Assembly: GCA_047631715.1 (NCBI GenBank)
Contig: JBLICC010000001.1
Span: 1-64,000, forward strand
Reading direction: 5' to 3'
Source of the DNA: Alteromonas naphthalenivorans
GTDB taxonomy: Bacteria > Babelota > Babeliae > Babelales > CAIQNR01
Length of the DNA: 64,000 nt
Part shown: positions 1-6,000 of the stretch, in pieces
Layout of the letters: each line of letters starts with the position of its first letter
How positions within the stretch are numbered: position 1 is the stretch's first letter
Program-made: the position numbers

Positions 1-3000
1 GCAATTGATAGTTTGGATCTGTATATAAAGAAATTGCATGTTCTATATTTTCTTTCTTCATAGGTATTGGTATTGGATTTGTATCATCAATTCCTAAATC
101 CTCAATCAGGCTATTGATGGTCTCAAAGATATTATCGTCAGGATTGTTTGTACTAAAAGGTAAAGTAACTATTTTTCCATCCTTAGACTTAAGCTTAATG
201 GCTGAATCATGATTAAGAATATCTGCTGCTGAAAAAGACCCTGCCAAAAATCCTAAAGATGCCTGCGAAACAAGATTATATGGTTGCATTGTATCTGCTG
301 CTGGCACCGCTGCACCATGCAAACCGATTGTCGAAAATAAGCTAAAAGCTAATAATAATTTTTTCTTCATTTGTTTCTCCATTATTTATTATTTATTCAT
401 TAATAATAGTACTTTGCAATCCTGTGGCACCTGTGCTCTAATTTGGTCTTTTTGTTCTTTTGGAATTTGGTTGAAACTAAGGCTGAGCCATTTTAATGCA
501 GGTAAGTTATTAAAGGTCTGTGGATCAATAGTAGTGATTTGGTTATTAGTGAGCTGGATCCATTCTAGTGCAGGTAAGTTATTAAAGGTTTGTGGGTCAA
601 GAGCAGTTATTTGATTGTTATGAAGGTAGAGATGTGTTAATGCAAGTAAGTGAGTAAAGGTTTGAGGATCAATAGTAGTGATTTGGTTATGATCGATGTT
701 GAGATATGTTAATGCAGGTAAGTTATTAAAGGTCTGTGGGTCAATAGCAGTGATTTGGTTGTTATTGAGTTCGAGATGTTCTAATGCAAGTAAGTTATTA
801 AAGGTCTGTGGGTCAATAGCCGTGATTTGGTTGTTATAAAGGAAGATCGATTCTAATGCAGGTAAATTAGTAAAGGCCTGTGGATCAATAGTAGTGATTT
901 GGCTGTCACTAAGCCAGAGAGTTTCTAGTGCAGGTAAATTAGTAAAGGTTTGTGGGTCAATAGAAGTGATTTGGTTGTTATTGAGTAAGAGACATCTTAC
1001 TCCCGAAAGATTTAAATTTCTTAAACCTCTTAAAGAGACAATGTTTTTATATTTAAGATTAAGAGTTCCATTTTCAATTTCAGGTATTTTATTTGCATCG
1101 ATCAAGTTCTGAATAGAAACATGTTTATGTGAACGATGTGCATAGTTATTAATTCTATAATTTACGTTATTTTTTTGTGTGAATTCACCTTGTAATACAA
1201 TATTATTATTTACAGTATCGTGAGCAAGATTATTTATATCTCTATCCATATCCATTTGTTGCAAAACAGTACGAGCAGGAGCAGCATGATACACATCGGC
1301 AGTGCTATTAAGGGGATTGTTTAACCATGCAATATAGAATGGTTCCAAAAAATATTTTGCATCAAGATAATCAAGTGCTACTAGTAAACTTTCAGGAGTA
1401 ACCTGTGTGGCTCTTTGTTCGGAATAAGCTACTGGTAATACATAACCAGGATCTGTATATAAACGAATGATATGGTTCAAATGTTTTGAATCGATGTTAG
1501 GTAATGGAATAGCAGGAGCATTTGCATCATTTCCTAAATCACCTATAAGATTATCAATAGTTGTACTATGAATGTTTGCAGGCATATTAAATTCTTTGCC
1601 ATCATTTGATACAACTTTAATTACATTCACTACTGGCGCCGCTGTACCTTGCAAACCGATTATCGAAAATAAGCTTAAAGCTAATAATAATTTTTTCATT
1701 TGAATCTCCATTATTTATTTTTTATTTATTTAAAATTCCACGAGGCAATCTGCGGGAACTATAGCTTTAATTTGGACTTTTTGTTCTTGGGGAATTTGGT
1801 TGTTATTGAGTCGGAGAGTGTATAGTTCAGGTAAGTTATTAAAGGTCTGTGGGTCAATAGCAGTGATTTGATTGTTCTCAAGGGCGAGACCTTCTAGTCT
1901 AGATAAATTATTAAAGGTCTGTGGGGCAATAGTAGTGATTTGATTGTTATTGAGGTAGAGAACTTCTAGTCTAGATAAATTAGTAAAGGTTTGTGGGTCA
2001 ATAGCAGTGATTTGATTGTTACCAAGATTGAGGTCTTCTAGTCTAGATAAAATAGTAAAGGTTTGTGGGTCAATAGCAGTTATTTGGTTGTCATCGAGTT
2101 CAAGATTGTATAGTGTAAGTAAATTAGTAAAGGTCTGTGGATCAATAGCAGTTATTTGGTTGTTATGGAGTGTGAGGAATCTTAATTCAGGTAAGTTATT
2201 AAAGGTCTGTGGATCAATAGCAGTGATTTGATTGTTATTGAGTTGGAGAGTGTATAGTTCAGGTAAATTATTAAAGGTCTGTGGATCAATAGCAGTGATT
2301 TGATTGTTACCAAGAGTGAGTTCTTCTAGTCTAGGTAAATTATTAAAGGTCTGTGCGGCAATAGTAGTGATTTGGTTGTTATTGAGTCGGAGACCGTGTA
2401 GTGCAGGTAAGTTATTAAAGGTCTGTGGGTTAATAGCAGTGATTTGATTGTTATTGAGATAGAGACTTTCTAGTCTAGGTAAATTATTAAAGGTCTGTGG
2501 ATCAATAGTAGTGATTTGGTTGTTATTGAGGTAGAGATATTCTAATGCAGGTAAGTTAGTAAAGACCTGTGGGTCAATAGTAGTGATTTGGTTGTGCTCA
2601 AGGTGGAGAGTTTTTAATGCAGGTAAGTGAGTAAAGGTCTGTGGGTCAATAGCAGTGATTTGGTTGTTATTGAGTCGGAGATCGTGTAGTGCAGGTAAGT
2701 TATTAAAGGTCTGTGGGTTAATAGCAGTGATTTGATTGTTATTGAGATAGAGATCGTATAGTGCAGGTAAGTTATTAAAGGTCTGTGGGTCAATAGTAGT
2801 GATTTGGTTGTTATCAAGGTAGAGCCTTTTTAATGCAGGTAAGTTATTAAAGGCCTGTGGATCAATAGCAGTGATTTGGTTGTTTCTAAGATTTAATTCT
2901 TGCAAAGTAGAAAGATCTAAATTTTCTAAACCTTCTAAAGAACCAATGTTTTTATCGCTAAGATTAAGTTCTCCATCTACAATTTCAGGTATTTTATTTG

Positions 3001-6000
3001 CATCGATCAAGTTCTGAATAGAAACATGATAAAGTTGACGAAGTGCATGATTATTAATGTTATTAGTATCTTCTGCATTTAGCTCTAAATTAGTGCTTAG
3101 AAGTGCTCCTGGCGCATCAATTCCTAGTCCCATTTGATTATAACCTATAAAAGCAGGAACATTGTGGTGAACTTCTTCTTGTTGATTTTGAGGATGATTT
3201 AACCATGCAGTATAAAACTTTTTAGTTAGATTTTTTGCATCAAGATAATCTAATGTCTGTAAAATACTTAATGGTGTAACATCTTCATCTATTTGTTCTT
3301 GATCTGTTACTGGCAATTGATAGTTTGGATCTGTATATAAAGAAATTGCATGTTCTATATTTTCTTTCTTCATAGGTATTGGTATTGGATTTGTATCATC
3401 AATTCCTAAATCCTCAATCAGGCTATTGATGGTCTCAAACATATTATCGTCAGGATTATTTGTACTAAAAGGTAAAGTAACTATTTTTCCATCCTTAGAC
3501 TTAAGTTTAACGGCTGAATCATGATTAAGAATATCTGCTGCTGAAAAAGACCCTGCCAAAAATCCTAAAGATGCCTGCGAAACAATATTATACGGTTGCA
3601 TTGTATCTGCTGCTGGCGCCGCTGCACCATGCAAACCGATTGTCGAAAATAAGCTAAAAGCTAATAATAATTTTTTCATTTGAACCTCCTTAACATTCTA
3701 TCCATTTTTTATCTTAGAATTAATTATAGAGATTAATTTCTATTTGTCAAACAGGGGGGGGTGCGTAAAGATGAGCTTAAAAGACAGGATTTAAGGTCAT
3801 AGAGCTACGTGAGCTATTGCATTGTTATTGTGATGAATTTTAAAATAAACGAGAATGAGCTTATTTTCGATGAATTTTATTTTTTAAGAGAAAACTAAAT
3901 AGATGGTAGTAAAGTTGAGTCATCCTGAGTGGGCACCGTTAGGTGGTTGTATCGAAGGGTGTTAAAGAAAATCGTTCTCTTTTATCCTTCGATACAATTT
4001 TTCGTTATCACTTAAAATCACTCAGGATGACTCGTTTTTAGTTTGAATAAGAATGAAGTCTAGCTAGAATGGTTTGGGTTTGGGGTATCTGTTTGTTTTT
4101 TATCTGTATTATCTTTATCCGTATGCTTTTTGATGTTGTAGATACGAGAAAGTGGATCAAAGAAGGCACGGAGTTCTAATGCAGCAAGAGCATTTTTAGC
4201 AGCTAAGTGGTTTTGTTTTGCATAGATGGGTGGAAGAAAGAGCTGGGGTTTATCGTTGGTAAGCGTAATGCCTTCGGGTACATAAATTGTTTCTGGTTCT
4301 GCAAATACTACTAATGTGTTAACAGGTAAATGTTTGTCTGATGGTAATGTTGATTTTTTTACATCCCAAAAAGAAAGTTTTGTACGTGCATCGGTTTCGC
4401 GTTTAAGAGTATAAAAAGCATGTTTTGAATTTTTTCTTACTTGCCAATGATGAATTGTGTTTTCTAACATAAAAATTGGTTCTGGATTATCACATACTAA
4501 TAATGAGAAATCTGGCTTTTGATGCCGGCGGGGAAACATAATTTCTCCCGATTTATCAGAAGTTGCCATAAATCCAAAATACGAAACAACAATGCCCGAA
4601 CGTGGATTTTTCTTCTTTAACGATACTTTTTTAAAACTGTTTTTTTCGATAGTAGGATAATCCTTAAAGAAAAACGTTATCATATGCGGACTAAATCCTT
4701 TTGCAACAACATTTTTTGTACCTATCACTAACAAGAATAATAAAACTTTGGTTATTTTTTTCATTTACTCCCCCTTTTTTAGAAAATAACGACCACTACA
4801 TCCTTGTAGTCTAACAATTGCTCATATCTAAAGTAAATAAAAAGTTTTATATAAGAAAATAATCTCATTTTTTATATTACTTTAATAAACTTATTAGAAA
4901 AACTATGCCGTTTGTTTATACAAAAAAAATAAAATTAATAAAAAAGAGTAGTTGCTTGTAGGTGTAATTTTTTTTAAGGTGTAACAACTGGAATTTTGAG
5001 GGTTACTACCACAAAACAAGGAGAGAAGATGAAAATAAGACAAGAAACTATGAAGAAAAACATTGTAAGTAGTTACATGGCTGGCGTTAAAGACAGTGAG
5101 CATGGACAAGGTTTTGGCGATATTACGCGTTACTTTATTCCTGAGTTTATCTCTGCCGTTATCTTGTATTCGGTGCCCCTTCTTATTGATGCCCGGTGGA
5201 TTGCGCATCTTCAATCTACGTCGGCATATGCCACATTGGGTATCACAAATACGCTTTTGCATTCAATTATAAAAATAGCAGAAGGTATTTCAGTAGGTAC
5301 TATTATTATGACAGGACAATTAAATGGTGTAGGGCATTTTAAACGCGCGGGCAATGCGTTGATTAATTCTTTCTGGACAACAGTTTTAACCGGTGGGTGT
5401 GTAGCAAGTCTTTTATTCTTGGGAGCTTCAAGAATTTATGTTTGGTATGGCGTTCCGGCAGAAATGGTTGTTTTGGGTGTTCCATTTTTGCGTATACGCG
5501 CAATAGGAATCTTTTTTACATTTGTTTATTTTGCTTTTATTGGTTTTTTGCGAGGTATAAAAGATACCGAAACGCCTATGAATATATTTATTTTGGGTAG
5601 TATTGTTTTTCTTTTCTTTGACTATGCACTTATTTTTGGGGCATTTGGTTTTCCTGCAATGGGATTACTGGGGTCTGCAATTGCTTCTGTAGCGCAATAT
5701 TCTTTTATGACTATGGCAGCGCTTTTTTATGTTATTAAGAGCGACATGCTTAAAAAATACGAAATTAATCTATTCAGTGCTTTTGCTTCATGGGATCGAG
5801 CTAAAGAGCTTTTTTCTGTGAGTTGGCCAGTAATGATAGATAAAGCAGCACTTTCTTGCTCATATGTTTGGCTTGGATATTGCTTGGCTCCCATGGGTAC
5901 TTGTGCCTTGGCAAGTTTTTCAGTAGTTAAAGATTTAGAGCGATTTGCGCTTTTACCGGCTATTGCATTTGCCCAAGTTATTACGTTCTTGGTGAGTAAC

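Follow-up and report, generated by a model that had tools for sequence, protein, structure and literature searches.

The window analysed here, a stretch of 64,000 nucleotides, opens at a contig end with three neighbouring genes of one family. Their products carry a signal peptide and a Skp1-like head, joined in the two complete proteins to a leucine-rich-repeat (LRR) solenoid:

2..382, (-) strand: third family gene, 5' part; ORF cut by the contig end
389..1711, (-) strand: 440-aa gene (ORF) encoding signal peptide, Skp1 core, helical linker or cap, and LRR solenoid
1640..1711, (-) strand: Sec-type signal peptide of the 440-aa protein, about aa 1-24 (sequence reading; charge/hydropathy heuristic)
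1349..1627, (-) strand: Skp1-derived BTB core, aa 29-121, corresponding to Skp1 residues 2-115 (Pfam, phmmer against PDB, structure alignment)
1496..1507, (-) strand: PxPN motif, aa 69-72 (alignment to Skp1)
1361..1375, (-) strand: end of helix 5 and loop, aa 113-117, corresponding to Skp1 107-111 (alignment)
1118..1348, (-) strand: subfamily-specific linker, aa 122-198, where Skp1 has helices 6-8 (the profile alignment to other heads ends here)
452..1117, (-) strand: LRR N-cap and eight 24-aa repeats of the 440-aa protein (Pfam LRR_8, E 6e-65; repeats counted on the sequence; N-cap motif)
1730..3679, (-) strand: 649-aa paralogue (ORF) encoding signal peptide, 30-aa spacer, Skp1-like core, linker and LRR solenoid
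3227..3511, (-) strand: Skp1-like core of the 649-aa protein, about aa 57-151 (phmmer, alignments)
1763..3022, (-) strand: LRR N-cap and 16 regular 24-aa repeats of the 649-aa protein (hypervariable concave-face positions)

The core of the 440-aa protein stops where helix 6 begins, and its helix-5 loop has Asp in place of Skp1 Asn108. The linker consists of a helix with conserved Tyr, Trp and Asn followed by a short helix, spaced like the LPxE helix of relatives described below. The 649-aa core is related to the 440-aa head (phmmer E 2.7e-25); it lacks the Asn of PxPN and gives no Pfam Skp1_POZ match at E<=0.1. The cut gene, which encodes the signal peptide and the first half of the head, is by its sequence a recent duplicate of the 649-aa gene (348 of 355 nucleotides at the gene start identical; family D2). 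Its Skp1_POZ score of 17.1 bits lies under the Pfam cut-off; searched with the 440-aa head, it is a clear homologue (phmmer E 5.4e-7). All eight head-bearing ORFs listed in the genome-wide survey's note were recovered at their places, three of them cut by contig ends. Also confirmed is the paralogue on contig C17, which carries a RING-H2 finger (zf-RING_2, aa 57-107, E 2.7e-8) where the others have the head; the LRR body is the same, with the N-cap in common; five RING-H2 proteins with a signal peptide occur in this genome, this one alone on that body. The genome is small and has two gspD copies and ATP/ADP translocases, traits of Babelota (PMC4776705); NCBI gives one family member, P0156, the name Ca. 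Babeliales. Babelota (Dependentiae, TM6) is the most likely phylum.

The head is recognised as Skp1 by sequence. In the 440-aa protein, aa 29-82 match Pfam Skp1_POZ with E 9.7e-9 and 35.7 bits, where the cut-off is 21.9; this confirms the survey's match, numbered there from the second Met. When aa 21-180 were compared with PDB sequences, Skp1 accounted for 24 of 24 matches up to E 10 (best E 3.8e-4). A model of aa 26-242 (pLDDT 91.9, pTM 0.88) aligns over aa 29-121 with Skp1 residues 2-115 (Z 8.9, rmsd 2.5, 82 residues). In a wide structure search, however, the fold alone did not single out Skp1: Elongin C and further BTB cores, Nac1 and gigaxonin among them, scored level with it (Z 7.2-7.6). 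Skp1 is preferred because the 440-aa head is 32% identical to it, against 16-25% for the other BTB cores. A profile of 32 relatives likewise retrieves Skp1 at E 4.8e-30 and Elongin C at 4.7e-13; the 59 PDB sequences that it reaches up to E 10 include no further BTB protein. Elongin C was rejected as the closer counterpart: its Z of 8.3 approaches the 8.9 of Skp1, yet the phylum profile prefers Skp1 by 17 orders of magnitude, and Elongin C is a core without helix A5, whereas the heads have a helix after the core. Pfam BTB (PF00651) does not match the window's proteins at E<=0.1; at least one of 40 relatives has it among the matches listed (L047, E 1.7e-5).

What follows the core in Skp1 is missing. 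At E<=0.1 the window's proteins have no Pfam match to the PF01466 region; the structure match of the 440-aa head ends at Skp1 115, with helices 7-8 unmatched, and Skp1 positions 138-163 are unoccupied in 37 relatives. In PMC1257465, Skp1 proteins are described as consisting almost only of the BTB core, PxPN as a Skp1-specific motif of strand B3 that contacts Cul1, and helices 7-8 as the critical F-box surface, the last also in PMC9507964.

The two faces of the head have diverged unequally, and the PxPN motif and Asp33-Leu34-Gly35 are intact in the 440-aa protein. At 15 presumed cullin-facing positions, some of them also structural, mean identity to the Skp1 consensus is 0.86 in 16 Skp1s, 0.64 in 37 bacterial heads and 0.48 in 21 held-out heads; at presumed F-box-side positions it is 0.77 (12 positions), 0.29 and 0.24 (11 scored). 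F101 falls from 100% in Skp1s to 9% in bacterial and 5% in held-out heads and C120 from 75% to 0%, while L100, L116 and A124 are partly kept. As judged from these alignments, the head keeps cullin-facing motifs better than F-box-facing ones. The helix-5 loop, equivalent to Skp1 107-111, is also presumed to face the cullin. Region iii of KLHL3 provides an analogue for this role (PMC3616122). At some cullin-side positions the window's own head is among the more diverged: in its LRR subfamily the Asn of PxPN is mostly lost (left in 2 of 21 members by MAFFT, 5 of 23 by HMM alignment), the Asn108 position holds Asn in nine and Asp in seven of 21 members, and the paralogue at C2:34970 has lost the helix-5 motif altogether. 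Judged from sequence, the cullin engaged would probably be cullin-1. A search run without a positive control found no cullin gene in 261 genomes of the phylum, so the partner would be the host's.

Behind the core, 18 of 36 relatives have a helix of LPxE type (0.81 expected by the short pattern, 0.21 by the long). In a held-out set of 30 proteins (25 genomes) the number is 11, from 10 genomes, where 0.22 would be expected. The pattern, LPxE[IL]xxx[IL], is that of F-box helix 1; the start of Skp1 helix 7 and the UBM motif look similar. In the window's subfamily, whose linker has Y126 in 21/21, W129 in 19/21, N135 in 21/21 and P145 in only 8/21 members, the pattern is degenerate. Neither Pfam F-box profile (PF00646, PF12937) appears among the matches listed for 39 post-core segments, this genome has no F-box domain, and a profile of 27 LPxE helices found no F-box protein among 12 PDB matches, headed by the REV1 ubiquitin-binding motif (E 0.0037). 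The model of a WD40-type head aligns 121-127 of its 142 residues with the BTB and 3-box of SPOP, KEAP1, KLHL22 and KLHL3 (rmsd 3.0-3.5), with BTB-only chains stopping near residue 110; on SPOP it aligns over 126 of 142 residues (Z 10.7, rmsd 3.0). The window's head superposes weakly on the BTB/3-box of KEAP1 (Z 5.5, rmsd 4.1). The term "F-box-less" that had been applied to the family is too strong: although no F-box profile matches the helix, the chain itself supplies, in many relatives, one that resembles F-box helix 1 or a 3-box helix.

The survey had described an LRR family of one genome. Instead, the head occurs in 76 of 261 genomes of the phylum with at least 328 matches (Skp1_POZ above the Pfam cut-off in 45), in up to 14 paralogues per genome, and in none of 400 genomes of a Rickettsiales-labelled order. 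It is a phylum-wide module with swapped bodies: among 70 relatives, 34 have a propeller, nine LRRs, three ankyrin repeats and one an M48 peptidase, and 23 no other family. These bodies are of the same kinds as in F-box and BTB proteins. Across 18 LRR repeats, positions 5, 6, 8 and 10 vary by 2.4-3.3 bits and the others by at most 1.7; this variation lies on the concave face, which is hypervariable. The LRR is of a regular 24-aa type and, by the survey's Foldseek search, resembles extracellular receptors rather than F-box-LRR proteins.

An origin of the fusion in eukaryotic contamination or mis-joined repeats is hardly credible and largely refuted. Three of the eight genes do lie at contig ends and no outside contig spans the LRR array, and some paralogue joints are present in public contigs. 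Against this, the frames are intact, the neighbouring genes are ordinary bacterial ones, GC (0.34) is like that of the contig and contamination is 0.19%. The architecture recurs in 76 genomes, several of them in one contig, and in independent metagenome proteins, and a 270-nt public contig reproduces window positions 1406-1675 without differences, joining the leader end to the head. The 24-aa LRR units differ from one another, most 300-nt copies being 70-86% identical; such divergence speaks against a collapsed repeat.

The survey also read the proteins as host-directed effectors. A leader is predicted by a signal-peptide heuristic, which accepts 71 of the 77 heads and 1 of the 31 full-length Skp1s. 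It says little about delivery, because some 40% of phylum proteins have one: the heuristic also accepts 236 of this genome's 608 ORFs, and 44% of proteins in the phylum have been reported to carry a signal peptide (PMC6561590). Two secretins and GspF are present; a search of the genome, which is 90% complete, gave no T3SS or T4SS marker. Babela grows in a vacuole (PMC4378268).

We favour, with moderate confidence, an adaptor reading: exported and made of one chain, the proteins would bring substrates to a cullin-RING ligase of the host, most likely the one built on cullin-1. The earlier proposal of a one-chain substitute for Skp1 plus F-box protein remains the best reading, though not as an F-box-less LRR family of one genome; the motif bias, loss of helices 7-8, swapped bodies and hypervariable LRR face lend it new support. 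The leader would send the protein to the periplasm, from which, in the most tentative step, a type II system or outer-membrane vesicles might release it into the protist host. The core would then compete with host Skp1 for the cullin N-terminal repeat, docking there by way of helix 2, the strand that bears PxPN and the loop between helices 5 and 6. The F-box-clamping helices 7-8 are gone, and a cis helix would pack where the BTB 3-box does and fix body to head; no host F-box protein would be needed, and the variable LRR, WD40 or ankyrin body would pick a substrate for ubiquitination. The result would be the BTB-Cul3 design rebuilt from Skp1.

An unlikely alternative is that no cullin is engaged, at least in the window's subfamily, and that the head is a folding cap, dimerisation or scaffold module of a repeat protein acting in the periplasm, surface or vacuole, for instance as an adhesin. 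The diverged PxPN and helix-5 loop of the LRR subfamily, the fold tie with generic BTB cores, the receptor-like repeats, the commonness of signal peptides and the failure to find an injection system would suit such a role. It accords less well with the better retention of cullin-side residues across relatives, with the intact PxPN and Asp33-Leu34-Gly35 of the 440-aa protein, and with ubiquitin ligation as suggested by the RING finger that stands in the head's place on the shared LRR body. Slightly less probable still is a decoy that blocks host SCF assembly at the cullin N-terminus, the body only localising it or adding contacts and no substrate being ubiquitinated. The conservation pattern would be the same, and some relatives are short or lack a recognised body (L018, L023:915, L055), others having two or three heads (L008, L020, P0019); a blocker, however, has no need of swapped bodies, of a hypervariable LRR face or of as many as 14 paralogues in one genome. 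Very improbable, finally, is a head that binds host F-box proteins as Skp1 does, removing them from SCF or bridging them to new targets: helices 5 and 6, part of Skp1's F-box surface, are present in WD40-type heads, and L100, L116 and A124 partly persist, but helices 7-8, F101 and C120 are lost and the cis helix is modelled in the 3-box place.

Bacteria mimic F-box, RING, U-box and BTB parts. No description of a bacterial Skp1-domain effector was found in the open literature, and the CRL-adaptor paragraph of one review lists F-box proteins only (PMC13720258). With eukaryotic Skp1, the SCF adaptor (PF03931 and PF01466), the heads share core fold and sequence to about residue 115-128, PxPN and the helix-5 motif; they differ in being bacterial, export-tagged, without helices 7-8 and F101/C120, and fused to a repeat body. 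One-chain Cul3 adaptors (BTB-BACK-Kelch, SPOP, KEAP1) offer a probable parallel in combining a cullin-docking core, 3-box-like helices and a substrate body (PMC3616122; superposition), whereas the heads are Skp1-derived (30-40% identity to Skp1, 7-18% to those BTBs), lack the N-terminal dimerisation extension and are predicted to use a different cullin. Bacterial F-box effectors (Legionella AnkB and LegU1, Ralstonia GALA/RipG, Agrobacterium VirF) also steer host SCF, GALA by means of LRRs (PMC13720258), but need host Skp1; the proteins here bring their own Skp1 core. The amoeba symbionts Protochlamydia (PEX1 BTB-LRR) and Neochlamydia (F-box/RING-LRR) have similarly expanded tandem ubiquitin-module-LRR families with swappable N-terminal modules, which, as described in PMC4209131, differ in having Pfam BTB or F-box heads and type III signals instead of a Skp1-type head and Sec leader; PEX1 is set apart by description. 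Giant viruses, which also parasitise protists, encode Skp1 homologues too; those sampled are mostly stand-alone, with an F-box-binding C-terminus, partly by selection because they were found by a helix-7 pattern. An engineered Skp1-TIR1 chain supports degradation in the amoebozoan Dictyostelium, according to bioRxiv 10.1101/2025.10.23.684119; being artificial, it joins whole Skp1 to a whole F-box protein, unlike the bacterial heads.

A wider proposal is possible, although we hold it only tentatively: that Babelota captured Skp1, cut it behind helix 6 and added an F-box-derived cis helix, yielding a movable tag for docking on cullin-1, about 130 residues long, with which hundreds of exported WD40, LRR and ankyrin proteins may direct host degradation without host Skp1, host F-box proteins, T3SS or T4SS, a natural one-chain SCF receptor that reinvents BTB/3-box. 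If the adaptor reading is true, these proteins would form a new class of cullin-RING hijackers bypassing the Skp1/F-box layer, and would show that a two-chain SCF receptor can collapse to one chain, as in Cul3 adaptors. They would also supply targeted degradation with a small, naturally occurring module that recruits cullin-1. For the Babelota themselves, a phylum of protist parasites about which little is known, a large family without annotation would gain a testable function, and the delivery of Sec-exported proteins to the host would become testable with a defined cargo.

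Three members of the family lie at the start of the window:

2-382, family ORF cut by the contig end
389-1711, minus strand, 440-aa ORF
1730-3679, minus strand, 649-aa ORF

In the 440-aa protein, the Skp1_POZ domain reported in the genome-wide survey's note was recovered with Pfam (aa 29-82, E 9.7e-9, 35.7 bits against a cut-off of 21.9), together with an LRR_8 match (E 6e-65). The claim that this region finds Skp1 in the PDB also held, as all 24 matches of aa 21-180, taken to E 10, are Skp1. The same note was right in counting eight ORFs with such a head in this genome, at their places and with three of the eight cut by contig ends, and in describing a paralogue on contig C17 with a RING-H2 finger; the finger precedes an LRR N-cap common to the window genes. 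The 649-aa gene and the cut gene are identical at 348 of 355 nt, and the GC content and neighbours of the window's family genes match the rest of the contig; that the fusion is an artefact we find barely credible.

Elsewhere in this genome, LRR tails cut by contig ends occur at C42:6732-7022 and C58:2753-3070, and the former, with the repeat type of the window genes, may belong to a cut head gene. LRR proteins with a leader and neither a Skp1 nor a RING head are encoded at C30:4714-6843 (with a serine-rich, low-complexity front), C2:3882-4658, and C5:10067-10615. Five proteins with signal-peptide-like leaders (C13:5510-6064, C17:608-1468, C28:5358-6179, C53:2343-2768, and C53:2777-3205) were called RING-H2 by pattern, with a Pfam check on the C17 one only. 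In the window itself, positions 3928-4030 hold an intergenic hairpin-like stretch with many partial matches from other contigs, and 9520-10389 encodes an M48-family peptidase with a leader (E 5e-9).

Against the PDB, Skp1 (E 4.8e-30) and Elongin C (4.7e-13) were the only BTB-fold proteins that a phylum-wide profile of the head matched. The head of the 440-aa protein was modeled with a pLDDT of 91.9, and its residues 29-121 align to Skp1 2-115 (Z 8.9); in a wide structure search it tied with other BTB cores (Z 7.2–7.6). A head of the WD40-bodied type (pLDDT 93.0) aligns over 108 residues to Dictyostelium Skp1A, with an rmsd of 1.9 and Z 14.2. The 30 nearest clusters by features in the Protein Atlas, a search that leaves out small clusters, are Skp1-type, and the taxa shown are eukaryotes and viruses. 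The head is derived from Skp1, yet at its C-terminus it does not qualify as one, helices 7-8 being missing. A tree was built from 132 cores on 114 columns, excluding any Skp1 row that lacked the C-terminal pattern. It places the LRR subfamily of the window in a single group (SH-aLRT 97, 8 rows); 77 of 129 branches were left open, and neither the donor of the head nor the number of acquisitions can be read from this tree.

The family is widespread in the phylum. Pfam Skp1_POZ matches 46 of 261 genomes and none of 14 controls, and a profile of 32 heads gave at least 328 matches in 76 of the 261 at E<=1e-5, a floor since at most 14 candidates were scored per genome. Applied to a sample of 400 genomes from one order, that of a genome labeled Rickettsiales, the same profile gave no match (one genome unscored). 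Among 70 relatives (40 of a first 46, after removal of five that were near-duplicates or truncated copies and one that contained N runs, plus 30 held-out proteins), the bodies comprise 34 WD40 or other propellers, nine LRR, three ankyrin, and one M48 peptidase; in the remaining 23, several of them cut short, no other family was recognized. Head–LRR fusions occur in nine genomes, the present one included, and a metagenome library holds about 15 clusters of the window's LRR subfamily. Of the words sampled, 69% and 58% are present in two ice-metagenome runs, one of which may be the source sample; the shares in six further runs were small and are no evidence. No RNA data set was listed among the runs containing them.

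Some relatives depart from the simple head–body plan. Two or three Skp1-like heads stand in tandem at L008:922-3144, L020:961-3114, and L011:685-1728 and in library proteins P0019, P0009, and P0026; such proteins could bridge or cluster cullins. At L056:334-1692, the M48 peptidase fused to the head is an enzyme and not a repeat body. In five others (L026:1429-2796, L029, L032, L015:1429-3039, and P0023), a C-terminal hydrophobic segment followed by basic residues resembles a membrane anchor.

Which face of the head has been retained bears on its role. Skp1 contacts Cul1 through its PxPN strand (PMC1257465), and KLHL3 meets its cullin with strand 4, the loop of helix 3, and the loop between helices 5 and 6, to which the 3-box adds (PMC3616122). 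With a cullin-side set built from PxPN and the KLHL3 regions and an F-box-side set built from generally accepted F-box contacts, the positions coming only in part from the cited papers, Skp1s agree with their consensus on the cullin side at 0.86, 37 heads at 0.64, and 21 held-out heads at 0.48; on the F-box side, the values are 0.77, 0.29, and 0.24. F101 falls from 100% in Skp1s to 5–9% in heads, and C120 to 0%. Helices 7-8, which the heads lack, are the critical F-box surface of Skp1 (PMC1257465, PMC9507964); that the head acts as a sponge for F-box proteins appears remote. The 440-aa protein has kept all of PxPN; among 21 relatives within the window's subfamily the Asn of this motif is rare, Asp often replaces Asn108, and one paralogue lacks the helix-5 motif. 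This erosion of the subfamily on the cullin side, like the mixed origin of the position sets, counts against conservation of the cullin face. A scaffold repurposed for a task without cullins is an unlikely but serious alternative, and a cullin decoy a slightly less likely one. We consider it probable, by a modest degree, that the proteins are exported adaptors whose heads would dock on a cullin of the host, with cullin-1 the likeliest.

The body would then select the substrate. The two whole genes contribute 18 repeats that fit a strict pattern (3 of 8 and 15 of 16). Within the 24-aa unit of these, variation reaches 2.4–3.3 bits with 7–11 residue types at positions 5, 6, 8, and 10, and 0–1.7 bits at the remaining positions. 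These four, which in established LRR geometry are the exposed positions of the concave strand, vary by differences that nearly all alter the residue. Such variation gives the body the look of a library of binders.

Many relatives carry L-P-x-E/D-I/L-x-x-x-hydrophobic behind helix 6, a pattern of F-box helix 1. Such a helix is present in 18 of 36 relatives, spread over ten genomes (0.21 expected from shuffles), a count made after the pattern had been noticed, and in 11 of 30 held-out proteins, from 10 of 25 genomes (0.22 expected); the profile used to pick those genomes covered the columns of the motif, which is a mild bias. An F-box identity of the helix found no support: 39 post-core segments have no Pfam F-box match among the families listed, a 27-helix profile found no F-box protein in the PDB (the top match was the REV1 ubiquitin-binding motif), and profile–profile alignment of the LRR subfamily with other heads stops short of the helix. 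Skp1's own helix 7 begins in a similar way. Chains with BTB and 3-box cover 121–127 of the 142 residues of the WD40-type model (SPOP BTB/3-box, Z 10.7, rmsd 3.0), and KLHL3 aligns to residue 178, beyond its 3-box at 150-176; BTB-only chains stop near residue 110. A 3-box-like element is likely in relatives. The window's subfamily has a helix at the same spacing, with Pro in only 8 of 21; given this and the profile alignment that does not reach the helix, its cap is at best a derived form.

The genome (0.84 Mb, 90% complete) encodes two secretins, GspF, and several ATP/ADP translocases, and neither a T3SS export marker nor a VirB10 marker was found in it. Four translocase (TLC) genes stand in tandem at C2:16606-22430. 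In TM6, two gspD copies are typical (PMC4776705). Together with a family member that carries the NCBI name Ca. Babeliales, this makes Babelota the most likely phylum; a housekeeping gene gave no better than 31–33% matches in named genomes. The cultured members of Babelota are protist parasites (PMC4378268, PMC6561590): Babela lives inside a vacuole, and F-box, RING, and deubiquitinase proteins are among those it encodes (PMC4378268), and Chromulinavorax is cytoplasmic, is wrapped by the mitochondrion, and releases vesicles, with 44% of its proteins bearing signal peptides (PMC6561590). A signal-peptide heuristic was passed by 71 of 77 heads vs. one of 31 full Skp1s; in this genome, 236 of 608 ORFs pass it. 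P0062 is a full-length Skp1 with C-terminal helices and a signal-peptide-like N-terminus. The adaptors would be exported by Sec, released by the type II system or in vesicles, and delivered to the host, where cullin docking would lead to ubiquitination. No cullin was found in the 261 genomes of the phylum, in a search without a positive control; L089:2097-4430, on a giant-virus bin contig, encodes a divergent full-length cullin next to a protein kinase gene. The partner could be a cullin other than cullin-1, since divergent Skp1 paralogues of trypanosomes pair with lineage-specific cullins (bioRxiv 10.1101/2023.07.24.550360) and a viral protein reaches CUL3 via Elongin C (PMC13769053).

In their proposed way of working, these proteins are like the one-chain BTB–Cul3 adaptors, but their heads are not Pfam BTB proteins. 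The nearest bacterial parallel, by description and not by sequence, is the 73-member BTB–LRR family of Protochlamydia, which has type III signals (PMC4209131). In its paragraph on CRL adaptors, a 2026 review names only F-box proteins for bacteria (PMC13720258), and an engineered Skp1–TIR1 fusion works in Dictyostelium (bioRxiv 10.1101/2025.10.23.684119). Searches of open-licence papers and bioRxiv turned up no bacterial Skp1 fusion. The family is real, widespread, and apparently undescribed, and would represent a new form of cullin-RING adaptor mimicry.
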